This document shows positions 4,189-57,046 of a DNA stretch of 64,000 nt, one piece after another. Under the pieces are notes generated by a model that saw only the letters and a list, made by a program, of their open reading frames with translations, was not told the DNA's origin and searched no databases. Source of the DNA: an uncultured Candidatus Saccharibacteria bacterium (lineage in GTDB: Bacteria > Patescibacteriota > Minisyncoccia > Phycocordibacterales > CSBR16-119). Within the stretch, counting starts at the first letter, position 1, and the number at the start of each line of letters is the position of its first letter. The stretch is from positions 4,217 through 68,216 of the forward strand of contig CAZPVH010000002.1 of assembly GCA_964589975.1 (NCBI GenBank), in the 5' to 3' direction. The translations under genes were made by a program, and so were the position numbers.

Positions 4189-4245
4189 GGGTTTTGATGG
4201 TCTTTGTGATCACGAATATTTTTCCTGACGGAAAAATTTCTCAAT

Positions 4246-4314
4246 CCCGCCTCGCGGTTTTTGCCTTTCGTCCGCCAAGCGGACTCAAACAAAAACATCG
4301 CTGCGGCCGGCACC
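4246..4314 (-). repeat. tRNA-trailing repeat element, copy B (minus orientation)
   Basis: The reverse complement reads GTGCCGGCCGCAGCGATGTTTTTGTTTGAG...CGAAAGGCAAAAACCGCGAGGCGGG. This is near-identical to the element at 29591-29657. Confidence 0.7.
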
Positions 4315-4384
4315 AAGGCAGAAAGCCCCGAACTAACGGGGCCTATTCTACTGTGGTCACAGATAATTTTGCTACGTAAAATTT

Positions 4385-4434
4385 CCGCGACCCCGCCTCG
4401 CCGTCGCTGCGTGACATGGCTCCGGCCGGCACAG
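4385..4434 (-). repeat. tRNA-trailing repeat element, copy A (minus orientation, shorter middle)
   Basis: The reverse complement reads GTGCCGGCCGGAGCCATGTCACGCAGCGACGGCGAGGCGGGGTCGCGG. It shares both conserved blocks with the other copies. Confidence 0.7.
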
Positions 4435-4478
4435 AAGCACAAAAACATGGCGCAGGCCATGTTTTTTTGTGTCTACTG

Positions 4479-12822: not shown

Positions 12823-13839
12823 TTACAGAGAGAAATTTGAGATGTTATATAGATCCGCTTCTTCTTCGGATTTTTTCTTTTCCTCGGCGGTTCGATCATC
12901 AAGCATTTCCGCATCATCTGGCATAGGGACAGTCTCAACGTCTTCAGATGGCAGTTCGGAAACAGGAGGCGCCGTTTCTAGGTGTCTTTGCATCAAATCC
13001 TTCCCTGGCTCATTTGACTGTAGGATTTTCAATAGGTCCTCCAAATCTTGCCTAGAGAAAAAGTCTATTGTGATTTTTCCACCGGACTCCTTGGTATCAA
13101 TATGTACTCGAGTGCCGAGAGATTCAGCAAGTTTCGTCTCCATTTCTTCTATCTCAGGATCGGGGAGTAAATCATGTTTTCTAACTTTCTCCTTTGCGAT
13201 ACCACGAGCAATTTTCTCTGCTTCACGAACAGTCATTTTCTTGTAAACAATCTCCTTGAATAGAACTGACTGCTCATCAGGTCTGTCGTTTAGCATAAGA
13301 AGGGGTCGAGTATGACCTTCTGTAATTTTTCCAGCGGAAAGTCCGTCGATTATTTCCTGTGGCATCTGAAGCATACGCAGACTGTTGGAAACATACTCTC
13401 TCGACTTTCCAACCTTGCGACCAATCTCCGCGTGAGAAAAACCGAATTCAGAAGCGAGACGAAGAAATGCTCTGGCTCGGTCTATAGGAGACAAATCTTC
13501 ACGCTGAAGATTTTCGATGATTGCGAGCTCGAGCTTCATCATCGGATTTTCTTCTTTTCTTATGACAGCCGGTACCTGAGTTAGTCCTGCCAATCGTGAT
13601 GCTCGAAGGCGTCGTTCTCCCGCGATAAGCTCGTACTTCACAGAGAATCCTCCGTCAGAATTTGGTTCTTCAATTCGGGAAACAACCAGAGGCTGAAGGA
13701 CGCCATATTGACGTATAGAGTCAGCCAAATCTTTCAGGCGAGCTTCATCAAAGTCGCGCCTAGGCTGATAGGGGTTTGGGACGATCTTACTTGTATCTAT
13801 AAAAAATATTGAATCTCCGGGTGTTTCGTTATATGGCAT
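12823..13839 (-). CDS. parB: ParB/Spo0J-family partition protein
   Basis: ParB N-terminal box (GERRLRASRLAGL...VPAVIR) and an HTH region (FSHAEIGRKVGKSREYVSNSLRML). Confidence 0.8.
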   Translation of the reverse strand: MPYNETPGDSIFFIDTSKIVPNPYQPRRDFDEARLKDLADSIRQYGVLQPLVVSRIEEPNSDGGFSVKYELIAGERRLRASRLAGLTQVPAVIRKEENPMMKLELAIIENLQREDLSPIDRARAFLRLASEFGFSHAEIGRKVGKSREYVSNSLRMLQMPQEIIDGLSAGKITEGHTRPLLMLNDRPDEQSVLFKEIVYKKMTVREAEKIARGIAKEKVRKHDLLPDPEIEEMETKLAESLGTRVHIDTKESGGKITIDFFSRQDLEDLLKILQSNEPGKDLMQRHLETAPPVSELPSEDVETVPMPDDAEMLDDRTAEEKKKSEEEADLYNISNFSL

Positions 13840-13933
13840 GAATGTATTTTAGCATACCCTCCTAGGCCTCAAGTTGTTTAAAAAATGTTGATAGTTGTAA
13901 TTAAATCTAGGTTAAAGTAAAATCTTGCTAATT

Positions 13934-13985
13934 GCCGAAGTGGCGCAAATTGACTACAGTGGTAGACATACGCGACTCATGGGAA
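13934..13985 (+). pseudogene. degenerate partial copy of the 5' half of tRNA-Leu(CAA)
   Basis: GCCGAAGTGGCGCAAATTGACTACAGTGGTAGACATACGCGACTCATGG aligns to the 5' half of the intact tRNA-Leu 30 nt downstream, with substitutions and a short insertion. Confidence 0.5.
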
Positions 13986-14015
13986 TTATTGGATAAAGGA
14001 TAGAATTAAAATATT

Positions 14016-14097
14016 GCCGGAGTGGCGGAATTGGTAGACGCGCACGACTCAAAATCGTGTCTCGCAAGGGGTGGAGGTTCGATTCCTCTCTCCGGCA
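14016..14097 (+). tRNA. tRNA-Leu (anticodon CAA), long variable arm, no encoded CCA
   Basis: GCCGGAGTGGCGGAATTGGTAGACGC G CACGA CTCAAAA TCGTG TCTCGCAAGGGGTG GAGGTTCGATTCCTCT CTCCGGC A. Confidence 0.85.
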
Positions 14098-14185
14098 CAA
14101 GTATAAAAATTCCCAGCTTTTTGCTGGGTTATTTTTATTGGTGCTGGATAAGAAATGCGCCTGCGCGCATTTCGTGAGGAATCGA

Positions 14186-14236
14186 AGGCCGGAGCCATAT
14201 TCGGAGCCTGCGAGGAATGGCGAGGCGGGGTCGCGG
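14186..14236 (+). repeat. tRNA-trailing repeat element, copy D (partial)
   Basis: AAGGCCGGAGC...GGCGAGGCGGGGTCGCGG shares the CCGGAGC and GCGAGGCGGGGTCGCGG blocks with the copies at 4246-4434 and 29591-29657. Confidence 0.6.
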
Positions 14237-14816
14237 CCTTGCGTAGCAAGAGCTGTGACCGAACTCTCTCCGGCACAATAACAAAGGGCGCATCCAGAGG
14301 ATGCGCCCTTGACTTGTTGGAGATGAACTCCTGTAACCTGTTGACCTGAGCGCGCGCTCAGGAGCTTTACGAGACCGAGGTCTCGAGTCGTGCCTGGACC
14401 ACAATCGTCACATGTTTGAGCCTCGCCCACAATCTGCAGAGAGTGGAGAGATCCCATTTCTGAAGTTAGGGTCCGAGACCTAACACTGGCTAGGTTACGC
14501 GAAGAACGATTCCGGTAAAGATATTACTCCTCCTTAAATCATTGTCAAGCAAAAGAAAGGGCCGTCCTTGCGGACGGCCCTCTAACCTCAGTAGCCAACC
14601 TCTACAGCCCTTCGTCCCTTTTTCAGGAATCGACAAACTGTCAGTTGGTGTCAGCTACAGAGCCTGTTCTGTGTTCCCGAACCAATCAGGATTCCTCGCC
14701 ATATATCACGTGAATTCAGACTTTGGATTCCGTCATGTATGTCCAGTACTTAACCGGAACAGCTTGGGTTAGATATTATTCATTGAGCCTAGACATGTCA
14801 AGACAAAAGAAATAGT

Positions 14817-15680
14817 ATGGTCAATATGCAAAAACCCCTTATTTATGTCGTCTGCGGCCCAACGGCAACAGGCAAGTCAGACTACGCGGTAAACCTAGCT
14901 CTCAAAGTTAATGGCGAGGTCATTTCAGCTGATTCCCGGCAAATTTACCGAGGAATGGATCTTGGGACCGGCAAAATTACCGAGGCGGAAATGAAAGGCG
15001 TTCCTCATCATCTTTTGGATATCAGAGACCCGGATGAGGATTTTTCCGTGGAGGAATTTCAGAAACTCGCGTTTGAAAAAATTGAAGAAATTTTATCACG
15101 TGGCCGGACGCCGATTATTTGTGGAGGAACAGGGTTCTTCATCCAGGCAATTGTCGATAACCCCGCCTTCCCTGTCGCGCCGGCGAATCCTGTGCTCCGA
15201 GCAGAACTTGAAACGAAAGACCTGTCAGAGCTCCAAGAAATTTTAAAAAGCATCCCCGCAGAAGACGGCGCAAAAGTCGACATAGAGAACAAACGCCGAG
15301 TCATCCGCGCCATCGAACTCGGCCGCGCGCTCGGGAAAATTCCAGCCATAAAATACGGTGAACAGAAATATGAGTTTGAAATGATAGGACTAGATTTCCC
15401 CGATGATGTTTTGAAACAAAGAATTGAAAAACGATTACTCGCGCGGCTAGAAGCTGGCATGATCAATGAGGTTAAAAAACTTCACGATGACGGCCTGTCT
15501 TGGCAGCGTCTGGAAAACTTCGGACTTGAATACCGCTACATCGCCGAATTCTTACAAAATATAATCACCGAGAAGGACCTGCCTGCCGATGAGGCATGGA
15601 TGATCGAAACTCTAAAACTCAAAATCTGGCAATACGCCAAGCGTCAGAGGACGTGGTTTAAACGAGATAAAAAGGATTAA
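14817..15680 (+). CDS. miaA: tRNA dimethylallyltransferase
   Basis: P-loop VCGPTATGKSD and DSRQIYRGMDLGTGK at the N-terminus. Length of 287 aa is typical of MiaA. Confidence 0.85.
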   Translation: MVNMQKPLIYVVCGPTATGKSDYAVNLALKVNGEVISADSRQIYRGMDLGTGKITEAEMKGVPHHLLDIRDPDEDFSVEEFQKLAFEKIEEILSRGRTPIICGGTGFFIQAIVDNPAFPVAPANPVLRAELETKDLSELQEILKSIPAEDGAKVDIENKRRVIRAIELGRALGKIPAIKYGEQKYEFEMIGLDFPDDVLKQRIEKRLLARLEAGMINEVKKLHDDGLSWQRLENFGLEYRYIAEFLQNIITEKDLPADEAWMIETLKLKIWQYAKRQRTWFKRDKKD

Positions 15681-15731
15681 ATGGAATCCATAATAAAAGG
15701 CGCCCGCTCGGAGCGCCTTTTATCCAAAATT

Positions 15732-16001
15732 TCAGTGGCAGCCGAGAAAATCTACTCGGTTATAGAAAACGACTTTCGAGATCTCATGATCGAGGAGTTT
15801 CGCCACGATCTCATAGGGATAGACTTCATGTCTCACACCATCGAATTCCACGTAGAGCCTGTCATTCTCTGACACAAGATCAAAGAAAGCGCCGGCCTTT
15901 ATCCGGAATCTCTCGTATTCGTGCCAATTCCAGCCAGCGCAACTATAGCCGATGAAAATCGCTACTTTCTCGGTCGCAAGACTTGTCTTCTTACTTGCCA
16001 T
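15732..16001 (-). CDS. hypothetical protein
   Basis: 89-aa ORF with a terminator-like hairpin downstream at 16040-16060. No family recognised. Confidence 0.35.
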   Translation of the reverse strand: MASKKTSLATEKVAIFIGYSCAGWNWHEYERFRIKAGAFFDLVSENDRLYVEFDGVRHEVYPYEIVAKLLDHEISKVVFYNRVDFLGCH

Positions 16002-16361
16002 GTTTTTTGGTTTTGTTTGTTTAAAGAACGAAAAATCCAGCCTTCTGGGCTGGTGATTTTCCTTATTCTTTATTAGTTAAAAAATTAACGAGAAGAAGCA
16101 CCAACCCACAAGTTGTTGGTGTCATGCCAGGCAAAATTATTGCTTCTTTGCTTCATGGCCCTAATATTTCATATTTAATAAAGTATGTCAAACACTCTTC
16201 TGCGGGACACCTCGGTCTTGTAAAACCTGGGCCTTACCCCATAAGGGTTTTTAGACTACTTTTAGTTTACCATTTTGAGGCATCTCGGAATAGCTACAAG
16301 CTTGACTTACTACATCTTTTATTTTATTATCCACAGGAACAGTTCACTAAAACCAGAAGAA

Positions 16362-16967
16362 ATGGACCTCCTCACACAGCAGGTACTGCAGGGGCTTGCA
16401 GGGGGATTATTCCTCCTGAACAAGATCTTCTTTTCCTTTTCTGAGCGTGCACTAAACCGAGGTAATAGCCCGAGAGCAAGGAGTTTTCGAATAGCTGCTT
16501 GGGTGGTTTATCTAGGTGGTTTACCGGCTTGGGTGATCATCTTTGTAAGCTTGCACGATTGGATAGCGGCGTCCGTTGAAGGAAGTGGATTGCCAGCCAT
16601 GATTCTTGGTCTAATCATGACATTAAAAGGGCGTGATCATAAGTCACCGCGCTGGCTCGACATCCTTGCCCTTGTTTGTGTCGTACTAGGCATCAGTTGT
16701 AGCCTGTACGATTTCGGTAGCTTCAGGCAGTTAAGCCAGTGGCTAGAAGCTGGGCTTGCTCTTGGATTCCTTATCGGTACGTATATGTTGGCGAAGCAAC
16801 GACGGGAAGGATATCTCTGGTATGTGTTCATGCACATATGCTGCGGATGGCTGATGTGGATCCAGGGTTACCCCTTACTTCTGGCACAACAACTACTTTC
16901 GCTTGTCTTCATTGCTGATGCCTATTACACAACGCGAAGAAGAATCCCCGTGACTGAAACGGCTTGA
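16362..16967 (+). CDS. integral membrane protein, hypothetical
   Basis: The ORF track begins at 16275. The first ATG with a plausible context is at 16362 (MDLLTQQ). There are about 6 TM helices. Confidence 0.4.
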   Translation: MDLLTQQVLQGLAGGLFLLNKIFFSFSERALNRGNSPRARSFRIAAWVVYLGGLPAWVIIFVSLHDWIAASVEGSGLPAMILGLIMTLKGRDHKSPRWLDILALVCVVLGISCSLYDFGSFRQLSQWLEAGLALGFLIGTYMLAKQRREGYLWYVFMHICCGWLMWIQGYPLLLAQQLLSLVFIADAYYTTRRRIPVTETA

Positions 16968-16980
16968 ACCTTTGGGAAGC

Positions 16981-17012
16981 TCCGACGAAAGTCGGGGCTT
17001 CTTTTTATTTAG
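16981..17012 (+). terminator. rho-independent terminator (variant of the recurrent GCCCCGAC hairpin)
   Basis: GAAGCTCCGAC-GAAA-GTCGGGGCTTC followed by TTTTTATTT. Confidence 0.65.
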
Positions 17013-17020
17013 AAAAACAA

Positions 17021-17485
17021 CTACGGCAAAACCAAAGTCTCTCCTTCTTTGCAGTATTTATTTACTTGATGACCATCAAACTCATAAAGAACGGTAGCCA
17101 TTTTTTGATATCCTATTAAAGGATCACCAGCGATATTGTTTGAAATGACTATTATGAGCTTGTCATCTTGAATGGCATTATTCAATTCGTTGGTTATATC
17201 AATAAGATGTAGGTCTCTACCATATGTCGCCTTCAAAATTTTTAGACGTCTTTTGTCTATTTTTATTTTATTAATAAATTTATATGTAAAGTACGAAATC
17301 AGAATGCTAAGTAACGCAGAAAAAATAGGAACCTTGACGTTTAATATATAGCTAGCTCCTCGCGCTAAATTATTAATATCTGAAATATCCATAGATCCGA
17401 CTAATCTTTCTACTACGGGAACGAGAAATAAGGCTAATATCCAAAACCACCACCGATCTTTAATTTTTAGGAAAAACTTCTGCAT
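17021..17485 (-). CDS. small membrane protein, hypothetical
   Basis: 154 aa with two N-terminal TM segments. AT-rich coding. Confidence 0.4.
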   Translation of the reverse strand: MQKFFLKIKDRWWFWILALFLVPVVERLVGSMDISDINNLARGASYILNVKVPIFSALLSILISYFTYKFINKIKIDKRRLKILKATYGRDLHLIDITNELNNAIQDDKLIIVISNNIAGDPLIGYQKMATVLYEFDGHQVNKYCKEGETLVLP

Positions 17486-17526
17486 ATATTTAAAAACCCT
17501 CTCGGAACCCAGAACCTGTCTCTAAG

Positions 17527-17600
17527 TGGCGGGCGATGGAGGAATCGAACCCCCACCAAAGGTTTTGGAGACCTTCGTTCTACCACTAAACTAATCGCCC
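17527..17600 (-). tRNA. tRNA-Trp (anticodon CCA), CCA encoded
   Basis: The reverse complement reads GGGCGATTAGTTTAGTGGTAGAAC G AAGGT CTCCAAA ACCTT TGGTG GGGGTTCGATTCCTCC ATCGCCC G CCA. Confidence 0.85.
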
Positions 17601-17807
17601 AACTGGCCCCGCCCATTACAGGCGAGGCCGCTAGCGAGAGACGGATTGCCTCTCGCCCAATTAAAATACAAAGAACCGATTAAGGATAGTATATTTACTA
17701 GCGAGAAGCAATGCAATGTTTACATTATATTGTTCGAGCGAAGTAAATATATAAGACGAGCGAAGCGAGTGCTTTTATAACATTCCCGAGAATAAGAAAA
17801 GCCTAGA

Positions 17808-18416
17808 TTAATCCTGCCTTTTAACTGTTCTGTTTTTCCGGAAAAGTATCATCCCCGTCATGAATGTATTTGAGATGATCATTACTATCGAGTGAAGCAT
17901 TGTCGCCACATTGTAAGCCTGAAGAGAAAATAGTATCAGAATATGACGTAGGACATTCATGCTGTATAGAAGTGGTGTTTCGGTATTTGGATGCGACCAG
18001 GTCTTTCTGAGGGTTGGAGTAAATGCGATGAGATCAATACTAACCGCAATGATGACTGAAATCGTCGGGTCTTTGGTCAGCACCCACGGGATAAGCCCGA
18101 GGAGCGCGATGATGAGAAATACTGTATCGATTTTTCGGATATTTTTAAAGCCATACCGAAGCGAGAAGAAAAATATAATTATGGTAAAAATCTCTGCCGC
18201 GGCTGTCGGTAGCGCACCAATTCCCGCCCCTTTTGCCACTTGGCCGAAGAATACGATACAAGAAACTATAGACCAAACGAGCCATGTGTATGGATGAGGT
18301 TTTACTCTTTTACGGATAATGTCTCGGAGGTAAGGAATATTGCCAATAATGGCGAGTACAGATGCGACGATAGCAATGGTCAATTTCATAAAGATAATTC
18401 TATCATCTAATCCCAT
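17808..18416 (-). CDS. integral membrane protein, hypothetical
   Basis: 202 aa with ~6 TM helices. No conserved catalytic motif recognised. Confidence 0.45.
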   Translation of the reverse strand: MGLDDRIIFMKLTIAIVASVLAIIGNIPYLRDIIRKRVKPHPYTWLVWSIVSCIVFFGQVAKGAGIGALPTAAAEIFTIIIFFFSLRYGFKNIRKIDTVFLIIALLGLIPWVLTKDPTISVIIAVSIDLIAFTPTLRKTWSHPNTETPLLYSMNVLRHILILFSLQAYNVATMLHSIVMIISNTFMTGMILFRKNRTVKRQD

Positions 18417-18442
18417 TTAATCATTTTTGATATAATTGGAAC

Positions 18443-18958
18443 ATGACATATAACATACATCCCATATTGGTTCATTTTCCAGTAGCACTATTATTTCTCT
18501 ACTCCATTGTAAAATTATTACCTTTTAAAAGATGGTTTCCGAACGTGTCGTGGAAGCATGTCGAATTGGCACTCTTGATCCCCGGATTACTTGGGGCTTT
18601 TGCAGCAAATATAACCGGCGAGGTTGCAGAGCATATCGCAAGGCCAAATCATAAACTGGTCGAAACACATGCCTTCATGGCTCTAACTGCTACATGGATG
18701 TATGGACTCCTTTTGGCGGGCGAACTATTGTATTGGATAAATACTAATTTGGTATCAAAGCTCCGATCTGCGCCTATACTTTCATTTTTTGTATTTATCA
18801 GAAATATTCTGGTGCATCCTTTCGTATCAGGGCTTTTAGCACTACTTGGACTCATTGCTATCTCACTCACCGGACTCCTTGGCGGAGTAATGGTTTACGG
18901 AGTTTCGGCTGATCCTCTCGCCGGAATAGTTCTCCAAATTCTGGGCATTTCTATCTAA
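18443..18958 (+). CDS. DUF2231-like membrane protein (tentative)
   Basis: 171 aa. An N-terminal HPILVHFPVALL-type motif and 4 TM helices resemble the DUF2231 family. Confidence 0.4.
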   Translation: MTYNIHPILVHFPVALLFLYSIVKLLPFKRWFPNVSWKHVELALLIPGLLGAFAANITGEVAEHIARPNHKLVETHAFMALTATWMYGLLLAGELLYWINTNLVSKLRSAPILSFFVFIRNILVHPFVSGLLALLGLIAISLTGLLGGVMVYGVSADPLAGIVLQILGISI

Positions 18959-19020
18959 AATCTATCTTGAAACCCCATCATAATAAAACAAAACCCGCTA
19001 GATGCGGATTTTGTTTTTAA

Positions 19021-19152
19021 TTATTTCTTCGTCTCTTTGTAGGTTACATGCTTCCTGACTTTCTTGTCGAATTTGCGGAGAACCAAAGGGTCAGGATTCT
19101 GCTTCTTATTCTTAAAAGTCCGGATAACCGTCTTGGACTTGTCGCTTTTCAT
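19021..19152 (-). CDS. rpmG: 50S ribosomal protein L33
   Basis: 43-aa ORF, below the ORF-track length cutoff. It reads [43 protein letters not shown], and the ...RLELKKFC..HT.HKETK tail is L33-like. Confidence 0.65.
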
Positions 19153-19178
19153 TTTTATAAGTCTATCTTGTGACATAA

Positions 19179-19206
19179 ATTAGGCGCTAGGCATTAGGCG
19201 CTAGGC
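19179..19206. repeat. perfect tandem duplication TTAGGCGCTAGGCA x2 upstream of rpmG
   Basis: Read directly from the sequence. It sits between the rlmB stop and the rpmG start in the likely promoter region. Confidence 0.6.
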
Positions 19207-19249
19207 AATGGCATGATATTAGCACGGGTAAAAGTATATGGCAAATCCC

Positions 19250-19993
19250 CTAGTAATTTCGTCTTTTCCACTCATAGGCTACGACCCCAGCGGATACGGA
19301 TGCGTTTAGTGATTCTATCCCGTCCTCCATGGGGATAGCAAGGAGGTAGTCGCAAGCTTCTTTTGTCCCACTACGGATACCCCGGCCTTCGTTTCCTATG
19401 ACGACGGCCATCGGGCTGTCCCACTTCTCCTCCCAAATATTCTTTCCGGCTTCCCCATCGAGCCCGACAACCCAGAATTTATGATCCTTGAGCTTTTGAA
19501 TGGTGTCATTCGTATTCGAGACGACGATTATGGGCAATCGCGCAGCAGTACCGGCAGACGTCTTGTAGACTGCGGACGTGATCGGCACTTGGCGATGCTT
19601 TGACATAATAACCCCCGCGGCACCAGCAGCGGCAGCCACGCGAATAATGGCGCCGACATTGTGCGGGTCTTCAAGTTCATCCAGGACGAAGACCAGAGGA
19701 TTGCTGTCTTTGTCAAAAGTATCTATCCAGTCATTAAAATCAAGAGACTTAAATTCCCTAAGCTCGGCAACAAAGCCCTGAGTGTTTACATCACCCACAA
19801 GAGAAATGAGCTTATTTTCAGGCACACGCGTAAGCGGAATTTTGTGCTTCGAGAGATATGGGCGGATTAATGTGAGGTCGTTATCTTTTACTGACTCCTT
19901 TACATAAATAGTTTTCACGTTTTTGGGATCAGTCAAAAGCGCCTCTTCGATAGGCTTCCTGCCGTATATATGGAGGCCGGTTTTTTCTTTCAT
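19250..19993 (-). CDS. rlmB: SpoU/TrmH-family rRNA 2'-O-methyltransferase (RlmB-like)
   Basis: N-terminal L30e-like substrate-binding domain plus SPOUT motifs (LDELEDPHNVGAIIRVAAAAGA, VIGNEGRGI, LNASVSAGV). Confidence 0.75.
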   Translation of the reverse strand: MKEKTGLHIYGRKPIEEALLTDPKNVKTIYVKESVKDNDLTLIRPYLSKHKIPLTRVPENKLISLVGDVNTQGFVAELREFKSLDFNDWIDTFDKDSNPLVFVLDELEDPHNVGAIIRVAAAAGAAGVIMSKHRQVPITSAVYKTSAGTAARLPIIVVSNTNDTIQKLKDHKFWVVGLDGEAGKNIWEEKWDSPMAVVIGNEGRGIRSGTKEACDYLLAIPMEDGIESLNASVSAGVVAYEWKRRNY

Positions 19994-20064
19994 GCGTACA
20001 CACTACAATAAAATTTTCTTTTTATCAAGAGCGAGCTCCGGCCGCTCTTAGCGGGGAAATTCGG

Positions 20065-20517
20065 CTAATTATAGATCACGCAAACGTCGTGATGACTTTC
20101 GGTAACACCAGTTACAAGATTCATGTAACCAACAATACAATCATTTGAGCTAGAATTCACTGTTCCCCTTCCTATGAAGTACGGATCTCCGTCCTCCCGT
20201 GGGAATTTTCCTGGAACATAGAAATCTATCCTCGTAACTTCCATATGCGAATCAGTGGCATTTTTGAACGCATCGATGGCCATTGAGTATGTTCCATACT
20301 TTAGGGAGTATTGGCACTTAAAATTATTATACTGACTCTTTAGACTTCCTTCAGCGTCGGTATCGCAAGGCTCTGGAGCGGACGATGGATTTGGTGTTTG
20401 AGGAGAAGGCTGCTGCGGATTATAGACAAGACCAGATTTTTTCCCTCTCGATAAAAATACCAAAACAACAATAAGTAAAATTATTGCGACAACTACCAAA
20501 ACTTTATTATTTTTCAT
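20065..20517 (-). CDS. secreted/anchored hypothetical protein
   Basis: 150 aa with an N-terminal TM or signal segment and a Pro/Gln-rich linker. No family recognised. Confidence 0.4.
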   Translation of the reverse strand: MKNNKVLVVVAIILLIVVLVFLSRGKKSGLVYNPQQPSPQTPNPSSAPEPCDTDAEGSLKSQYNNFKCQYSLKYGTYSMAIDAFKNATDSHMEVTRIDFYVPGKFPREDGDPYFIGRGTVNSSSNDCIVGYMNLVTGVTESHHDVCVIYN

Positions 20518-20521
20518 ATTG

Positions 20522-20605
20522 TGCGCCGGGCAGGATTCGAACCTGCGTAGGCCATAGGCCGACAGATTTACAGTCTGTTGTAATTGACCGCTCTACCACC
20601 GACGC
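20522..20605 (-). tRNA. tRNA-Tyr (anticodon GTA), long variable arm
   Basis: The reverse complement reads GCGTCGGTGGTAGAGCGGTCAATTAC A ACAGA CTGTAAA TCTGT CGGCCTATGGCCTACG CAGGTTCGAATCCTG CCGGCGC A. Confidence 0.8.
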
Positions 20606-29139: not shown

Positions 29140-29243
29140 CAAGTCGAACTTTTTACACATGCCCGGATGGCGCATAATTTGACTATAGAGGTATACGCGC
29201 GCGACATTTTGGCTAGTAATAGTACATTGGAAATGATTTATTT

Positions 29244-29548: not shown

Positions 29549-29590
29549 CAAAAGACACAAAATCCCGACTGCTCGGGGTTTTGTGCTTTT

Positions 29591-29657
29591 GTGCCGGCCG
29601 GAGCGATGTTTTTGTTTTAGCGAAGCGAAAGGCAAAAACCGCGAGGCGGGGTCGCGG
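29591..29657 (+). repeat. tRNA-trailing repeat element, copy C (reference copy)
   Basis: GTGCCGGCCGGAGCGATGTTTTTGTTTTAGCGAAGCGAAAGGCAAAAACCGCGAGGCGGGGTCGCGG. Lies immediately 3' of tRNA-Leu(TAG), after a short hairpin. Confidence 0.7.
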
Positions 29658-29717
29658 AATTTCCCCGTCATGGGAAATATCTGTAACCACAAAATACGTG
29701 ATATTATAATATCCATC

Positions 29718-48036: not shown

Positions 48037-48711
48037 TTAGAGGTCTTTGAAGTCCCAACCCCACCAGACTCCGAAGTAACGCTCTTCTTGGCTCCAAAGA
48101 TCCCAAGCATAAGCTCGGACAAAGAAGCTTTTTCCGATCTCCGCGCCGAGCGCAGGACCGATATCCAGATCATCGAGCTTCCCGGAAATTCGTATCTGTT
48201 CCGCAAGACCTACCCGAAGCCACTTGTTCACTTTGTAAGCTGCGTCAGTGAAGTTGTAAGTGATGTTCGTTGTATTGTGGGTCAACGCGAAACTGTGTTG
48301 GTTGATCGAATAGATCTTCCAGCGCTCCCTGTCGAGCGTAGTGTGCGACGTGAAGCCGATAAGAGTCCGAGCCCTGTAACCATATTCCCACATTGTGTTA
48401 TAGGTGGTTACACCAAATGCCGGAGCGAACGAGAGACCGAGTTTCTTGCCGATATTCCACCGGTGGCCCCAGTAGAAGGAATTTGCTCGAGTTTGTTCGA
48501 AGTTGTAGCGAAATTCGAACAGATCATCGTTTCGATACACCAGACCTCGGAAGGCCACGACAGGATTCTCGAGCTCAGCTCGGTCCCACATCCACATGGA
48601 TGCATTGGCGGACCAATCGCTTGGGTTGCCTACGATCTTCGCCTGGTCATTCTGCTGAGCAGAGACATTGGCGCACAGGAGGACCACTGAAAAGGACAGT
48701 TGTAAGCGCAT
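48037..48711 (-). CDS. secreted W/Y/R/N-rich beta-strand-rich protein, hypothetical
   Basis: 224 aa with a signal peptide (MRLQLSFSVVLLCANVSAQQ) and an alternating aromatic/polar pattern reminiscent of a beta-barrel or beta-sandwich. GC is elevated. Confidence 0.45.
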   Translation of the reverse strand: MRLQLSFSVVLLCANVSAQQNDQAKIVGNPSDWSANASMWMWDRAELENPVVAFRGLVYRNDDLFEFRYNFEQTRANSFYWGHRWNIGKKLGLSFAPAFGVTTYNTMWEYGYRARTLIGFTSHTTLDRERWKIYSINQHSFALTHNTTNITYNFTDAAYKVNKWLRVGLAEQIRISGKLDDLDIGPALGAEIGKSFFVRAYAWDLWSQEERYFGVWWGWDFKDL

Positions 48712-48794
48712 GTTTGTTCTTTTGTTTTAAACTAACATACTTATCTATAATTGTCAACCAAAGAAAAACGCCCCCGATTTACGGGGGCGCTTTT

Positions 48795-50459
48795 TCAATC
48801 CTTGAAAGGAACTGTATCCTCCTCTTTTCTGACATGCTCTTTGGAACTCTCTTGTTCCATATAAGCTTGCCAACTAGAAGGATGTGCTTCGTTGCCTTCG
48901 AGATGTATACAGACCTGACGGTCAGCAGCATCAATGAGAGCAATTTCGGCTTTGCCGAACGTGATGATCTGCAGGCTATCGCCCGACTTGGCCTGGATAT
49001 TCGTCTTCCAGTACAAGTGGCGGTCACCGTTCACATCACGAACTACAGGGGTCATCTCTGTAGGCTCTTGGCGGTGCCAATCATATTCAGGCATGTAATC
49101 CCGAACTTTGCTTGGTATCGCTGTCGGACCCATCAGTTTCTCTGGCGACGTCTTGTGGTCAAAGTAGTAGACGTGTGAGTCGTCGCCTTTGACAAAGAGA
49201 CTGAGCGAAAGAAGGCTCTTGTCTTTGCCGTACGGTTCGAGCGGGATGTAGTGACATAAGCCATCTTGGGCCTTGCCACCTGACACTTCGCTCAGTACGA
49301 AGTACTCCTCGAAAGGAAGTATCGTATACGAGTTCGGCGAGTTAGGGACTCTGACATCTCCTGCGTGGTTACCCCACGAGGGAGCCCAGAAGCCTTTGTA
49401 GAACCGGAACGTTTGTGCCGCGTAGAGCGCCACTTGGTCCGGAACCAGAAGTTGTCCCGTGAGGAAGTCGTGATCTGTAACCTTATCGGCCGTGATCACT
49501 TCTCCTCCGCCAAAAAGAACTTTTTCAAAGTAGGGCGCCTTGCCCTGCTTGAACACAACTACTCCTCCATACTCAGGCATCGGGAACAGAATTCCCGTCC
49601 ACTTGATGAGCGGCACGACTTGGACGAAATCGCCATTGTCGTCCGGTATATAGATAGAGTAGTTTACCGGTTCATACCGGAAGTACTGCCAGAAGCCGAG
49701 CTTCTTGATGGCAGCGGTCTTCACGTTGCTCGACAGGATCAGATTCTCCCCGAAGGAGAACTCGACCTTTGCCACCTCCTTGTTCTTTTCATCGAACTTC
49801 GGAGACAGCGTATTGCCGGGCGTCAGGAAAACCTGTTCGACGTGACCGAACAAGTATTGCCAGATCTTGGTGCTCGACGGCTCTACGGCCATCGTAAACC
49901 AGTACTCGGCGTCTTGTCCCAAGCCGTACCGCCTGCGGGCCGCTTCGTTGAAGCGGACCATGTGCGGCAGACTCACGTCTTTGGTATCATCCACGCTCTC
50001 CTTGTCGGCGATGCTGTGGATGCTGTACACCGCTTGTACTTTCTCGTGCGCTGTAAGCGGCATATCCGTGAGCTCAACTGAGCGAATGCGCAGATGATTC
50101 CGGTAAAGCGAGACGTACTCGTAAGACATCGCGCCGGCCGTGTAAACGACAACAGCTGCGAACGTCCATATGATCCCTGTCCATGTCTTCTTCCACCATG
50201 CGCCTTCCCGTTTCTTCACCCGCTTCACGACGAAGTAGATGGTTGAGACGAGGAGGATTGCAAGGGGAGTTTTGAGGACAATGAACAGTACGAGCGGATG
50301 GTACAGACCTCGGAGGGTGAAGAGCGCGAAGAGGAGGAGGAAGGCAAGCAAGACCCAGATGGTCTTGCCCACCACTCCGTAATTTCGCCACTTGAACCAC
50401 CCCTGGATATTCCTTCCCCATCGTGTGAGGAAGAAACCTTTCCTTGCTGTGCTTTCCAA
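48795..50459 (-). CDS. large membrane protein, hypothetical
   Basis: 554 aa with ~4 N-terminal TM helices and a large soluble domain. GC-rich block. Confidence 0.5.
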   Translation of the reverse strand: MESTARKGFFLTRWGRNIQGWFKWRNYGVVGKTIWVLLAFLLLFALFTLRGLYHPLVLFIVLKTPLAILLVSTIYFVVKRVKKREGAWWKKTWTGIIWTFAAVVVYTAGAMSYEYVSLYRNHLRIRSVELTDMPLTAHEKVQAVYSIHSIADKESVDDTKDVSLPHMVRFNEAARRRYGLGQDAEYWFTMAVEPSSTKIWQYLFGHVEQVFLTPGNTLSPKFDEKNKEVAKVEFSFGENLILSSNVKTAAIKKLGFWQYFRYEPVNYSIYIPDDNGDFVQVVPLIKWTGILFPMPEYGGVVVFKQGKAPYFEKVLFGGGEVITADKVTDHDFLTGQLLVPDQVALYAAQTFRFYKGFWAPSWGNHAGDVRVPNSPNSYTILPFEEYFVLSEVSGGKAQDGLCHYIPLEPYGKDKSLLSLSLFVKGDDSHVYYFDHKTSPEKLMGPTAIPSKVRDYMPEYDWHRQEPTEMTPVVRDVNGDRHLYWKTNIQAKSGDSLQIITFGKAEIALIDAADRQVCIHLEGNEAHPSSWQAYMEQESSKEHVRKEEDTVPFKD

Positions 50460-54438: not shown

Positions 54439-55555
54439 TGGTTCCGATGCTTATGGGTTTTACTGAGTGAATCGGGAATGACAGCCGGCGCGCAAAATCC
54501 TTGTGCTCGGCTGTAACTTTCTGAGCGAGGTGATGACTGCAGATCAGAAAATTCTTCACTGCGCTCACTCCCCGCTCGCTGCATTCGAAATCCGATGTCT
54601 CAACGTGGAATTGTTGCACGATCTTATCGGTCTTCAGGAAGCTTCCTGTTAGGTCAGCTTCTCCTGCCGAGACCAGCATCTCCACGGTAAGCGGCACACC
54701 GAACTCTCCTTTATCCATTGCTGGATCGCGGATGAGGTTGGTGAGCACATGGTCGTCATTCGAATATTCACCGAGGATCGGTCCGATCTCGATGCGCTTC
54801 AACAGCTTGGGACTAACGGCTTTGATCTTGCGGTCGATCCCTCGACCGATCAAAACCAGCTCCCGAGCCAAGAACGACTCATCTTTTACCGCCTGTTCGA
54901 ACAGTCGCCGCGCGGCCTCGTCTTCACGAAGGTCGGGAGCTGACTTCTGTTGGTCGAACATCATCAGATAGATAAATGGGCGGCTGTCTTCGGAATCGAA
55001 GATCGCCCAGTGGTAAAGGAATTGCCGGATATCGGCGTTCTCGCCGATTAAGGCAAGGTCGCCACGGTTGTAGCTTCTGAAGAAAGGCTGTTCCGAGAGT
55101 GCCTTGAAATAAAGGCGCTCTCCCATCACCTGCAAAAGATCTTTTGGATCCTCGTGCTTGGTCATGAGGCGGTTCAAGATCTCACCCTTGAGATCCTGCT
55201 CGCTCGGAAAGCTCTTCAGTCGCTCTTTTGCCTGCATCAGGTCTGCGTCCAGCTTCGTGAATTCGAGGCTATTCGGATAACCCGAGAAGGTCGTATCAAT
55301 ACGCATCGCCGAATCGGCGTCGTAGAGATACTTGTAACGCAGAATGACAATGGTGTTCAGAAAGAGCCTGAGATAATGCTCGATGAGCTTCACCTCATTC
55401 GCCTCCCCGCCATGCGTAGTGCTTTGGTAGAAAGACATGACTCTCTTGAAGACAGAGTTCAAGTACTGGAAGTAGTGGGCGTTCTGATCGGACTTAAGAT
55501 CCACCATATTGAGATGATCATTTTCCGTGTCAGTAAGAAGCTTGAGTTTTCTCAT
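54383..55555 (-). CDS. hypothetical protein
   Basis: 390-aa ORF in the GC-rich block, in the same operon-like array. Confidence 0.45.
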   Translation of the reverse strand: MRKLKLLTDTENDHLNMVDLKSDQNAHYFQYLNSVFKRVMSFYQSTTHGGEANEVKLIEHYLRLFLNTIVILRYKYLYDADSAMRIDTTFSGYPNSLEFTKLDADLMQAKERLKSFPSEQDLKGEILNRLMTKHEDPKDLLQVMGERLYFKALSEQPFFRSYNRGDLALIGENADIRQFLYHWAIFDSEDSRPFIYLMMFDQQKSAPDLREDEAARRLFEQAVKDESFLARELVLIGRGIDRKIKAVSPKLLKRIEIGPILGEYSNDDHVLTNLIRDPAMDKGEFGVPLTVEMLVSAGEADLTGSFLKTDKIVQQFHVETSDFECSERGVSAVKNFLICSHHLAQKVTAEHKDFARRLSFPIHSVKPISIGTNAKSQERTPDQGVRHQEA

Positions 55556-55612
55556 TGTTGAGGTTTACTGTTTGTGAAAACCCCCCGGCACATGTCCGGG
55601 GGGTCTCGCTTG

Positions 55613-57046
55613 TCAGCTGAGTACGCTGAAGCCTTCAGTGGCGGGTTTCCCGCCGCTTGGAGCTCCATCGGAACCCTCGGGCTTCTCTTCACCATTGTGC
55701 TTGTAGAACGAGGCGACGGCTTCTTCAGGATTGATGCCGTATTGCTTCATGTAGTCCTGGAAAAGTTCTTCCTCGGTTCTTATAACACCGGCCATGGCTT
55801 CGGCATAGACCTTACCTACTTGGTGTAGGTGTCTCATCCGCTCAGGATGCTTGGCAATCTGAGCGAGTCGGTCATCCTCGGAAGCTTTGGCGGCTGATGC
55901 CGTGTATTCGATGTTGAACTCATCGACTTTCCCGCCAATGTTCCTGTACATCGATGTCACCTCCTGATCCTTTTGAGCCTGCATGATGCTGACCAGCGTC
56001 TTCCACGTGACGGAGCGCTTGTCAGATGCGGCTTTCAGGGCCTGGAGGTTGGCTGCCAAGTTTGTCTTCAAGCGGGTTACCGCGTCGTACTGAAGGCTCA
56101 GTTCATTGACCGCAGCCTCATACTCCTGGTTCACTGCTCGAGCCTCTTCAAGCTTGGCTTTCGTGTCGCCGTACTGCTTCTTCAGATCTTCGACGAGCTG
56201 GTCCTGCTTCGCATAGGCTTCTGTGCCCTTCTCTGCGATCATGGCAGCAAGCTTATGACTTTCTTCTGTGACCTTGGTCATCAGATCTCCGGTCTGTTCG
56301 TTCCATTCGCGGAACTTCTTGCCCGCTTCGTCACGAAGCCTGATCGAGGATTTCTTCTTGTCGTCGATCTGCGTCAGCTGCCTCACCAGTCCCTGGACAC
56401 GCTGTCGGACGAGACCATCGATCTTGGATACCAGACCCATGTAGTGGGTCAATGATTCCTCCATCGATGCCGTCTGCAAACGCTTCCGGTAAAGTTCATC
56501 AGCCTTGGCTTCAGCATCCGCGAGTCCTTGCTCACGATCTGCCTTGGTGCGGTTCAGCTCCTGGATCAATGCTTCGGCCCTGCGAACTTTACCGCCACGA
56601 CCATTGAAGATCGAGAGGAACCAGTTATCCGAAAGCGCTTGCGCGTCGGTCAGTTGGTTATTCGCCGAAGGGATCCTTGCTTTGACCTCATCCAGGAATT
56701 GCTGGGCTTTGTCGATCAATGCCTGTTCGTCAGGATTGAGCGAAGTGAGTTTTTCAAACCCAAGCTGCACCGTATCCATGAATTGCCGAACTGCCAAGAA
56801 GACGTTGGCGAGGTCTTTTTCCTCCGACTTGAGCATCGCTTCCACCGACTTGAAGTCGGCGGTCATGATCCTCTCTCGGAGACCAGCTTTGGCATCTCCG
56901 GTCTTCGCATCCATGACCTGATCGATCACATCAGCGTAGTCTGTACCTGCCACTTGCTTGACCTTGTCCTCCATCTTCGTTTGCACATCTCCCTTCTGGA
57001 GTTCCTCCAGAAGATCGAACTGGAACGCGGGATCCTTGTCTGTCAT
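55613..57046 (-). CDS. large coiled-coil protein, TelA/KlaA-like (tentative)
   Basis: 477 aa, almost entirely heptad-rich helical with an acidic N-terminus. Length and composition resemble toxic-anion-resistance TelA family proteins. Tentative. Confidence 0.35.
   Translation of the reverse strand: MTDKDPAFQFDLLEELQKGDVQTKMEDKVKQVAGTDYADVIDQVMDAKTGDAKAGLRERIMTADFKSVEAMLKSEEKDLANVFLAVRQFMDTVQLGFEKLTSLNPDEQALIDKAQQFLDEVKARIPSANNQLTDAQALSDNWFLSIFNGRGGKVRRAEALIQELNRTKADREQGLADAEAKADELYRKRLQTASMEESLTHYMGLVSKIDGLVRQRVQGLVRQLTQIDDKKKSSIRLRDEAGKKFREWNEQTGDLMTKVTEESHKLAAMIAEKGTEAYAKQDQLVEDLKKQYGDTKAKLEEARAVNQEYEAAVNELSLQYDAVTRLKTNLAANLQALKAASDKRSVTWKTLVSIMQAQKDQEVTSMYRNIGGKVDEFNIEYTASAAKASEDDRLAQIAKHPERMRHLHQVGKVYAEAMAGVIRTEEELFQDYMKQYGINPEEAVASFYKHNGEEKPEGSDGAPSGGKPATEGFSVLS

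Follow-up and report, generated by a model that had tools for sequence, protein, structure and literature searches.

Mobile elements that integrate at tRNA genes leave a classical signature, a direct repeat running from the T-loop into the trailer, and casposons also duplicate about 14-15 bp at the 3' end of tRNA genes. The integrase families are normally specific for one site. Palindromic elements of the IS200/IS605 type insert without target duplication and have fixed ends. In this work, a stretch of 64,000 nucleotides from an uncultured Candidatus Saccharibacteria bacterium (contig CAZPVH010000002.1, referred to as the window; 47% G+C) has been analyzed, with attention to the region 14100-14810, which is bounded by the tRNA-Leu(CAA) gene and by the miaA open reading frame (ORF; 14817-15680), both on the plus strand. 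This region contains one copy of a repeated element that shares some features with the systems mentioned above. It is named here tRNA-trailing element (TTE), a name coined in this analysis for a family that is also defined here.

The region is a composite of four independent things: the terminator of tRNA-Leu, one TTE copy, two tandem units on the minus strand (units A and B) and the miaA promoter (Table 1). The best explanation of the locus as a whole, to which we give about an even chance, is such a composite in which the TTE is a non-autonomous mobile element and units A and B are short non-coding transcripts. The same order of genes, RelA/SpoT (+), ParB (-), an intergenic region containing tRNA-Leu(CAA), and miaA (+), is found in eight other genomes (L002, L004/L005, L007, L008/L130, L131, L132 and L133), with MiaA identities to the window of 72-82%. 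The MiaA homologues are labelled Patescibacteria, Paceibacterota or Pacebacteria.

The TTE copies of the window

The initial annotation of the region had noticed a repeat copy trailing the tRNA gene, and only for this part of the region is there strong evidence that structure is conserved. Three occurrences of the exact 17-mer GCGAGGCGGGGTCGCGG were counted in the window, against 0.14 expected, and they are located behind tRNA-Leu(CAA), tRNA-Arg(CCT) and tRNA-Leu(TAG). The covariance model R1 gave four matches in the window, each with E <= 1.5e-11, two of them in tandem behind tRNA-Arg(CCT) (Table 1). No second R1 match was found in 13800-14900 even with the filters off.

After the 3' end of tRNA-Leu(CAA), the left arm of the TTE starts at 40 nt and the core motif GCCGGAGC at 90 nt. 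The left arm begins with TGGTGCTGGAT (14139-14149), in which the acceptor 3' strand of the tRNA and its trailer are copied in inverted and degenerate form, continues with a hairpin capped by a CUGC tetraloop (14153-14172) and ends with GTGAGGAATCGAAG (14174-14187), an inverted copy of the T-stem and T-loop. This layout is repeated in L002 and in dozens of other loci, and CTGC-loop hairpins with a stem of at least 7 bp are found in the window inside TTE copies only. The core consists of a GCC-G-GA-GC/GC-GA-GGC stem with a tandem G.A internal loop and a variable cap (hp1, 14196-14219), followed by a GGG linker and by the stem P2 (GUCGCGG...CUGUGAC), with an invariant G.U pair and a variable tip (hp2); the folding z-score of the core is -4.3. 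In the right arm, the 15 nt CTCTCTCCGGCACAA are identical to 14086-14100.

The copy behind tRNA-Arg(CCT) represents a short-arm form, in which the end of the tRNA plus the trailer pairs with its complement as a long CUGC-loop hairpin, and its ortholog in L002 scores 76.5 bits with R1. Many copies of the family repeat a CCGAGC...GCGAGG module at both variable hairpin tips; the copies of the window retain only the central one.

Table 1. Position, strand and supporting evidence of the features found in the window.
Feature	Position	Strand	Evidence or remark
tRNA-Leu(CAA), host gene of the TTE copy	14016-14098	+	ARAGORN; Rfam tRNA model, 59.4 bits
tRNA-Leu intrinsic terminator, CCCAGC-TTTTT-GCTGGG then TTATTTTTATT	14112-14139	+	Terminator scan
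TTE copy after tRNA-Leu(CAA)	14139-14278	+	One of four copies in the window
TTE left arm	14139-14187	+	Inverted repeat I6: 14078-14088 with 14176-14186, 11/11
TTE core	14188-14259	+	R1 covariance model 14174-14270, 57.7 bits, E = 5e-12
TTE right arm CGAACTCTCTCCGGCACAA, direct duplicate of tRNA-Leu 3' end	14260-14278	+	Direct repeat D1; blastn
TTE after tRNA-Arg(CCT)	4345-4440	-	R1, 73.3 bits
Second, more degenerate TTE, in tandem behind the tRNA-Arg(CCT) copy	4198-4321	-	R1, 55.8 bits
TTE after tRNA-Leu(TAG)	29583-29698	+	R1, 68.6 bits
Unit A, candidate transcription unit	about 14766 to 14546	-	Promoter and terminator scan
Unit B, candidate transcription unit	about 14514 to 14274	-	Promoter and terminator scan
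miaA promoter-like site TAGACA-N17-TAGTAT, ending at the annotated start	14790-14818	+	Promoter scan; weaker than the minus-strand sites
Degenerate copy of the tRNA-Leu 5' half, just upstream of the real tRNA	13931-13985	+	Direct repeats D2, D3
Hairpin CCCAGC/GCTGGG	14112-14128		Sequence check
Hairpin AAATGCGC-CTGC-GCGCATTT (seventh hairpin)	14153-14172		Absent from the initial annotation
Hairpin GGGCGCATCC/GGATGCGCCC	14286-14308		Sequence check
Palindrome CCTGAGCGCGCGCTCAGG	14345-14362		Sequence check
Hairpin GAGACC/GGTCTC	14372-14385		Sequence check
Hairpin GTTAGG/CCTAAC	14467-14486		Sequence check
Hairpin GGGCCGTCC/GGACGGCCC	14559-14580		Sequence check

Structure and covariation of the TTE core

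As shown by the alignments and the fold models, the TTE core is predicted to form a strand-specific three-way junction of about 110 nt. Its parts are a closing stem (P1) made from the two flanks, a GNC/G/GA/GC:GC/GA/GN'C stem capped by hp1, the GGG linker and P2, which carries a one-nucleotide bulge. The nucleotides of the junction that are left unpaired are conserved.

The seed was a MAFFT alignment of 18 copies, built without reference to a structure. The share of cells that pair in it is 88.9%, compared to 68.6% in shuffles and 33-45% when the partners are slid, and compensatory changes affecting both sides were found in 28 of the 39 pairs. The same core is predicted independently by RNAalifold, with 19 of 30 pairs compensatory. 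In the alignment of the 113 copies matched by R1 (see below), 38 of 39 base pairs are compensatory; this alignment is fitted to R1, with pair counts that lean towards the structure. In the three-pair stem that flanks the G.A loop (columns 20-22/104-106), G-C pairs are replaced by A-U and C-G pairs by A-U or G-C. Pair 4 of P2 is G.T in all 85 copies counted manually, though the search pattern also permitted G-C, and the P2 stem as a whole shows 132 G.T against 0 A.C combinations, so that the fold belongs to the tRNA-sense strand.

Some other interpretations of the core were discarded. A closing stem resembling an acceptor stem (GCCGGAG...CTCCGGC) was considered as the defining feature and rejected because GCCGGAG is part of the conserved core behind other tRNAs too. 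When HDV-like, hammerhead and group II domain V folds were compared by eye with the core, neither the helix order nor the conserved nucleotides fitted, and Rfam agrees with this result.

Distribution of the TTE family and host genes

When the copies are read side by side, the consensus is GCCGGAGC - variable hairpin - GCGAGGCGGGGUCGCGG - variable hairpin - CUGUGAC. The pattern GCCGGAGC-N(12-42)-GCGAGGCGGGGTC was used to scan the collection and matched at least 119 loci. Among the matches listed, the sources were mostly Saccharibacteria, Paceibacterota, Kaiser-, Zambryski-, Giovannoni-, Moranii- and Falkowbacteria, WWE3 and Minisyncoccia, with a few contigs labelled Elusimicrobia and WS2 and with chance matches in high-G+C genomes. 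With R1, 113 copies were found in 90 loci, also among the matches listed; this limit applies to all the counts over 113 copies and to the host genes given below. TTE matches of 75, 58 and 53 bits are located on long contigs of metagenome-assembled genomes (MAGs) assigned to Elusimicrobiales, Elusimicrobia and candidate division WS2 (L095, L106 and L099, respectively). The family may thus extend past the Patescibacteria, or it may have been transferred.

The TTE is apparently undescribed: its best copies gave no match in Rfam 15, and no account of it was found in the searched literature. The 12-nt sequence GGCGAGGCGGGG present in the core (for example at 14219-14230 of the window) also opens the 19-nt cohesive end of P2-type phages (P2/P4 cos; PMC3931495), whose first 12 nt are identical. 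This identity is most likely due to chance.

The TTE is found downstream of, and co-oriented with, a tRNA gene, a tmRNA gene or occasionally the end of a highly conserved protein gene. In 80 of the 113 copies a tRNA or tmRNA of the same strand ends within 300 nt upstream, no copy has only an opposite-strand tRNA (0/113), and the hosts comprise 18 tRNA specificities plus tmRNA. Some of the copies without a called tRNA follow apparent tmRNA 3' ends (...GGTTCGATTCCC..CATCTCCAC) that were recognized by eye and were not called by ARAGORN (L054, L085, L098 and L104). In four Patescibacteria genomes (L036, L046, L051 and L059) the copies are located after the stop codon and terminator of one conserved gene, encoding a small basic protein that ends in ...PQWSKR*, and the last codons of this gene, GGTCGAAGC, resemble a T-loop; the duplicated flank at these loci reaches more than 40 nt. 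Three further copies (L017, L041 and L108) follow one shared conserved sequence that is not a called tRNA.

The sequence of the arms is not fixed, the left one being an inverted copy and the right one a direct copy of the 3' end of the preceding gene. Throughout the family, the right arm is found directly 3' of GUGAC. The usual start of its duplicate is C56 of the T-loop (T54 or T55 in occasional copies), from where it extends over 15-31 nt into the trailer; where direct repeats are evident their length ranges from 9 to 31 nt, occasionally exceeding 40 nt, and their end points are variable. The left arm, directly 5' of the core and past three unpaired nucleotides, is the reverse complement of the T-loop and T-stem, and further upstream, often past the CUGC-tetraloop hairpin, the reverse complement of the acceptor 3' strand and trailer is found. 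In the short-arm form, which includes the tRNA-Arg and tRNA-Leu(TAG) copies of the window, only the last few nucleotides of the tRNA and the trailer are involved, folded through the CUGC-loop hairpin.

At the right register, 61% of the P1 pairing between the arms is Watson-Crick, compared to about 25% when the register is shifted. In contrast to the core, G.U combinations (35) do not outnumber A.C ones (36) in the arms, as is expected if templated copies decay. Our interpretation is that the arms take their sequence from the target and drift afterwards, around a core that is under structural selection.

Hairpins, coding potential and minus-strand units

The six hairpins listed in the initial annotation are all present in the sequence, together with the seventh one included in Table 1. 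With perfect hairpins defined by a stem of at least 6 bp and a loop of at most 8 nt, the region has 7, compared to 1.39 +/- 1.2 in 500 dinucleotide shuffles, of which 2 reached this number. Overlapping 711-nt scan windows at three other parts of the 64 kb (about 711-2486, 48281-48991 and 54671-55736) also have 7-8 perfect hairpins, and therefore the hairpin density of the region is real and not unique. Folding of the whole segment gave z-scores from -4.3 to -5.4, a large share of this signal coming from three intrinsic terminators. Conservation of the hairpins in the syntenic relatives, which had been proposed as a check, was found in position for the terminator hairpins and did not extend to the internal hairpins of units A and B.

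The absence of a credible coding sequence, also stated in the initial annotation, was borne out by six-frame tblastn against four syntenic regions and all the fetched loci, in which no ORF of the region was conserved in translation. The longest ORF (167 amino acids) is on the minus strand and runs through the tRNA. The tblastn matches of the region are at the DNA level, appear in all frames and cover only the TTE repeat and the terminators. A decayed mobile-element or pseudogene remnant had been suggested as well; its first part holds insofar as the TTE behaves as a repeat of mobile-element type, and its second part found no support, since no protein pseudogene homology was detected with tblastn against the syntenic and fetched loci, a search that did not take these frames to a global protein database. 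No similarity to phage DNA was found. Apart from tRNA, no Rfam 15 family was matched at the gathering score in the whole window, and a permissive Rfam scan of 13800-14900 (E <= 10) gave terminator look-alikes only, the best being ctRNA_p42d (29 bits against a threshold of 50). RNase P RNA and SRP RNA were absent from that scan, and tmRNA was found neither there nor by ARAGORN, in agreement with the initial inspection. Riboswitches, self-cleaving ribozymes and GOLLD/ROOL likewise gave no Rfam match.

The strand opposite to miaA carries the two best promoter-like sites of the region and two strong terminators, which delimit the candidate units A and B. These units are in tandem and converge on the tRNA/TTE. 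The putative promoter of unit A (14801->14773) is TTGACA-N17-TAATAT and that of unit B (14548->14521) is TTGACA-N16-TAATAT; both sites match TTGACA...TAATAT at 10 of 12 positions, would have a spacing of the sigma-70 type (16-18 nt) and are located 220-240 nt upstream of the terminators. G+C-rich hairpins followed by a U-run, as predicted for intrinsic terminators, were found at 14112-14128 on the plus strand and at 14310->14284 (unit B, then TTTGTTATTGT) and 14583->14556 (unit A, then CTTTTGCTTG) on the minus strand. The body and terminator of unit B hold three of the hairpins listed in the initial annotation.

On the plus strand, the -35 region of the miaA promoter-like site overlaps the -35 of unit A, and an equivalent TTGTCA...TATTAT arrangement is found at miaA in L004, L008 and L130. 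The closest MiaA homologue (P0001, 284 amino acids) starts at the position corresponding to the ATG at 14826 and covers 99% of the 287-amino acid ORF. This layout suggests that the miaA mRNA would be leaderless or near-leaderless.

Back-to-back with the miaA start, each of the nine genomes has a promoter of the TTGACA...TAATAT type on the minus strand, which is followed, after 150-430 nt, by a strong terminator, and four of the nine have two such units. The unit B promoter is conserved with L002 and L008, the unit A terminator with the last ~30 nt of the unit is 94% identical in L002, and outside the tRNA no sequence is better conserved between the window and L002 than the promoter/terminator junction. 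The unit bodies are unalignable even where MiaA is ~80% identical, with the exception of L004 and L131 (82 nt at 83%); other matches between units, such as that of unit A of the window with unit A of L002, correspond to the terminator region. When the unit-A terminator GGGCCGTCCTTGCGGACGGCCC was searched in metagenome contigs, 41 loci (L134-L174) were found, none of them syntenic. The hairpin GGGCCGTCC-TTGC-GGACGGCCC (14556-14583) is verbatim in these 41 contigs, which are unrelated, and is a recurrent generic terminator.

Units A and B were also considered as paralogues, which was rejected because MAFFT and blastn found similarity only in promoter and terminator. A 6S RNA was rejected too, as the minimum-free-energy folds of 12 units are branched, unlike the rod of roughly 180 nt with a large central bubble that characterizes 6S RNA, and there is no Rfam 6S match; neither 6S nor any other family was matched with Rfam (E <= 5) in the syntenic regions of L133 and L007.

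Judging from the sequence, units A and B are probably real short non-coding transcription units whose sequence is unconstrained. Selection on promoter and terminator and not on sequence suggests that the act of divergent transcription, or the insulation of miaA and the tRNA, matters over the RNA product, and the units may have such a role in divergent transcription or insulation at the miaA promoter. Counting against a functional RNA, the sense z-scores of the unit bodies range from 0 to -3.8 across genomes, with similar antisense values, so that structure is weak and inconsistent; without the terminators, the bodies of the window give -2.6 (unit A) and -1.3 (unit B). A possible though somewhat unlikely alternative is that neither unit is a functional RNA, both being neutral spacers or what is left of lost genes, with a promoter and a terminator still in place. 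Bodies that do not align between genomes with ~80% identical MiaA, z-scores that are weak and alike on both strands and the lack of an Rfam match are all in favor of such spacers. What they explain poorly is a promoter plus terminator unit of 150-430 nt kept at the same place and orientation in nine compact genomes, and a promoter/terminator junction that is conserved better than any other non-tRNA sequence between the window and L002.

Origin of the TTE

In the explanation preferred here, the TTE would be a small non-autonomous mobile element that is read through from the tRNA promoter and would spread by copy-and-paste next to genes bearing a T-loop, the arms being templated from the target at every insertion. 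The conserved core would be recognized by a trans-acting enzyme or would have an RNA activity itself, and the inverted repeats between the TTE and the tRNA ends would probably favor small inversions of tRNA genes.

Patchy occurrence is the first argument for mobility. R1 copies were found behind five of five tRNAs of L002 (in 21 kb) and behind three of nine in the window, and no copies were found with R1 at E <= 1 in L004, L005, L007 and L008. The tRNA-Leu and its terminator are 95% identical in L004 and L005, both without the TTE repeat. In L004 the same tRNA-Leu and terminator run directly into ACAATAAAAAGCG, and in the window 14139-14274 is inserted between the tRNA-Leu terminator and ACAATAACAAAGG, from which it follows that the TTE, including both arms, behaves as a discrete indel. 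Near-identical core subtypes are found behind different tRNAs and in different genomes (4198-4321 and 29583-29698 of the window, L091 and L122), and tandem and decayed copies exist. Two further points in favor of mobility are that the family is found in MAGs labelled Elusimicrobia and WS2 besides many classes of Patescibacteria, and that the arms lack a G.U-over-A.C bias.

Decayed TTE-like copies were observed behind tRNA-Tyr in L007 (6841-7010) and L002 (18026-18190), with the core replaced or eroded. The CUGC hairpin is still present in them, as are the inverted T-arm and a direct duplicate of the tRNA 3' end; with R1 they score 20 bits in L002 and give no match in L007.

The orientation of tRNA genes was compared between the window and L002, L004, L007 and L008, in which the flanking protein genes stay in place. 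The genes of tRNA-Phe (2710-2785), tRNA-Leu(CAA), tRNA-Trp (17527-17600) and tRNA-Tyr (20521-20605) flip orientation between these syntenic relatives, and for tRNA-Trp and tRNA-Tyr the flipped state coincides with the presence of a TTE. The block 13931-14277, with the pseudo 5' half, tRNA, terminator and TTE, is inverted in L002 relative to ParB and miaA, the two versions being 81% identical over 353 nt. The TTE ends in a direct duplicate that constitutes an inverted repeat of the 5' acceptor strand of the tRNA (ATTGCCGGAG...CTCCGGCACAAT in the window). Such inverted repeats made by the TTE are a plausible substrate for the inversions.

Several observations weigh against mobility. No transposase, integrase or reverse transcriptase was found near the copies in a Pfam scan of 20 of the 59 ORFs of the window, the 20 scanned ORFs around TTE copies being housekeeping or without Pfam match. 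No two copies of the window are identical, so that recent movement is not demonstrated. The window and L002 have orthologous copies behind tRNA-Leu(CAA) (81% identity), in which trailer, duplicate and left arm have changed together (CACAA/TTGGTG in the window, CACAG/CTGTG in L002), which suggests long-term retention and selection on pairing, as for a resident functional RNA. A terminator is usually located between tRNA and TTE, and transcription of the core would therefore depend on read-through. To our knowledge, no process has been described by which a target would be copied into an element in both inverted and direct orientation.

The main rival, although unlikely in our view, is that the TTE is a resident cis-acting module of pre-tRNA transcripts whose patchiness reflects repeated loss. 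The left arm would then be antisense to the 3' third of the tRNA, with the downstream duplicate competing for it, and the helix resembling acceptor and T-stem could be a substrate or decoy for RNase P, RNase Z or the CCA-adding enzyme, or could bind a protein through the G.A motif. The strict orientation and position relative to tRNAs, the strong RNA-type covariation with its never-replaced G.U pair and conserved unpaired junction nucleotides, the coordinated change of the orthologous copies described above and the arms of the long-arm form, which reproduce a stack of a 7-bp acceptor and a 5-bp T-stem, all agree with a resident module. However, host-matched arms behind 18 tRNA specificities, tmRNA and a protein gene would require independent origin or mobility anyway, and the element is wholly absent in close relatives that retain the same tRNAs. 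Tandem and degenerate copies, a terminator that precedes the TTE and the missing G.U-over-A.C bias of the arms are not easily accommodated either.

In a more speculative proposal, decidedly improbable at present, the TTE would represent a new class of small mobile RNA that does without a protein, or of tRNA mimic. With a core that is a three-way junction, either catalytic or recruiting an enzyme, the element would write inverted and direct copies of the 3' end of the target, from the T-loop onward, into its own arms; it would be re-programmable and specialized on tRNA and tmRNA genes across the Candidate Phyla Radiation (CPR) and beyond, with the flipping of tRNA genes as a by-product.

It is very doubtful that the TTE acts as single-stranded DNA in the manner of REP/BIME or IS200/IS605 elements, moved by a Y1 (HUH) transposase for which hairpins with G.T pairs and bulges would be recognition sites on one strand. 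Strand-specific folding with G.T but no A.C, the lack of an own ORF and the multi-copy occurrence next to hairpins and terminators would suit such a system. In contrast, the TTE ends are target copies of 15-31 nt instead of fixed ends without target duplication, and a junction of three helices in which the joining strands are conserved, together with tandem G.A loops, would be expected of RNA more than of DNA. No TnpA/RAYT was found among the 20 of 59 window ORFs scanned, no genome-wide transposase search having been made.

Scars (attL/attR) of genomic islands that were inserted by an integrase at tRNA 3' ends and have lost nearly all their cargo are highly unlikely. Such scars would account for the direct repeat of the tRNA 3' end from the T-loop into the trailer, but the ~130-180 nt between the repeats never contain an ORF, one conserved core is found behind 18 tRNA specificities, and covariation of the core is not expected to persist in a decaying scar. 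Moreover, only two viral contigs matched in the pattern scan, and the one that was read (L128) has tandem TTE copies and no called tRNA.

The reading proposed in the initial annotation, one novel structured non-coding RNA or a riboregulatory leader of miaA spanning 14100-14810, is scarcely tenable: high hairpin density, low folding energy and the lack of an ORF speak for it, but three of the six hairpins are plain intrinsic terminators that together with two promoter-like sites split the stretch into units, mostly on the strand opposite to miaA, conservation of sequence and structure is confined to the TTE part, relatives hold one or two units of 150-430 nt with unrelated bodies, and upstream of miaA, with its promoter-like site reaching the start codon, conservation stops at the promoter, unlike what would be expected for a leader or riboswitch.

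If the TTE is what it seems, it is a widespread structured element (at least 119 loci in many Patescibacteria classes and in MAGs labelled Elusimicrobia and WS2), and many 'empty' tRNA-flanking regions of reduced genomes could be annotated. It would provide a concrete RNA for questions on self-cleavage, protein binding by the G.A motif and processing by tRNA enzymes, and, if the puzzle of how each new target comes to be copied in both orientations were solved, a new mechanism of insertion or templating could come to light. The TTE may also explain why the orientation of tRNA genes differs among CPR genomes that are syntenic in other respects. The interest of units A and B is more local: they form a conserved arrangement of divergent promoters beside a gene for tRNA modification, which has its expected substrate tRNAs on both sides.

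tRNA genes and pseudo-tRNA pieces in the neighborhood

The pseudo 5' half that precedes tRNA-Leu(CAA) falls outside the region described in the initial annotation and is part of the block inverted in L002. It comprises the 5' acceptor strand, a D-arm with the 8-nt insertion TTGACTACAG and the start of the anticodon stem, and it is kept in L002 (inside the 353-nt, 81%-identical inverted block) and in L132. A similar degenerate copy of a tRNA-Leu 5' half is located at ~29161-29205, upstream of tRNA-Leu(TAA), with a D-loop insertion (TTGACTATAG) of like kind.

The genes of tRNA-Leu(CAA), tRNA-Trp and tRNA-Tyr flank miaA (14016-20605). These tRNAs read UNN codons and are presumably MiaA substrates. 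The proximity of miaA to its expected substrate tRNAs may represent functional clustering.

Comparison of the TTE and the units with known systems

Short repeats such as MITE, REP/BIME, Correia, RUP and Rickettsia palindromic elements resemble the TTE in being short, ORF-less and multi-copy, with a stable fold and inverted termini, and also in their patchy presence between relatives, tandem copies and intergenic sites. The TTE differs from them in termini that copy the 3' end of the adjacent gene instead of a fixed element sequence, so that no terminal inverted repeats common to all copies exist and the termini track the local tRNA. Its direct repeat measures 15-31 nt, sometimes more than 40 nt, compared to 2-10 nt in these elements, and across the copies (9 to 31 nt, occasionally more than 40) it does not have the constant short length of a target-site duplication. 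The strict position and orientation relative to tRNAs, the three-way junction with RNA-type covariation and the lack of a known partner transposase are further differences. With regard to IS200/IS605-type or REP elements, the fold of the TTE is strand-specific (132 G.T, 0 A.C), a duplication accompanies it, and no Y1 transposase was found in the 20 ORFs scanned.

With islands and prophages of the tyrosine-integrase type, the TTE shares the direct repeat of the tRNA 3' end that starts from the T-loop and flanks the insert, and an upstream tRNA that is left intact. It lacks the integrase and cargo that those elements carry between the repeats (no ORF in ~130-180 nt), it is not restricted to one target tRNA but is found at 18 specificities, tmRNA and a protein gene, and it has an additional inverted copy of the target.

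Guide-bearing mobile RNAs, such as group II introns with EBS/IBS pairing, IS110 bridge RNA or IS605 omega-RNA, also have a segment complementary to the neighbor of the insertion site. The likeness extends, especially for class C introns, to the location just behind a hairpin or terminator and to a conserved core with a varying 'guide'. However, the TTE core is only ~110 nt, without domain V/VI, Rfam match or adjacent protein gene, its complementary segment is of 12-25 nt and it has a second, direct copy of the target. A class C group II intron has six domains including domain V, a length of at least ~400 nt and a 5' GUGYG; the TTE, with ~110-180 nt and no match to the Rfam intron models, has the position after a hairpin as its sole class C trait.

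Units A and B resemble orphan bacterial sRNA genes and divergent non-coding transcripts in their consensus promoter, ORF-free body of 220-240 nt, terminator and divergence from miaA. They differ in a body without conserved sequence or structure and in their variation among relatives (one or two copies, 150-430 nt).

The G.A motif of the core recalls kink-turns and tandem sheared G.A loops of the L7Ae type, with a GNC-G-GA-GC/GC-GA-GN'C pattern formed by a covarying Watson-Crick stem, tandem G.A/A.G and a second stem. The TTE has a bulge of 1 nt compared to 3 nt in the canonical motif, and the likeness comes from the sequence pattern, set beside the general knowledge of this motif. Taken together, the TTE fails the defining tests of each known family that could be tested, and it is classed, in a broad sense, within the structured interspersed or mobile elements.

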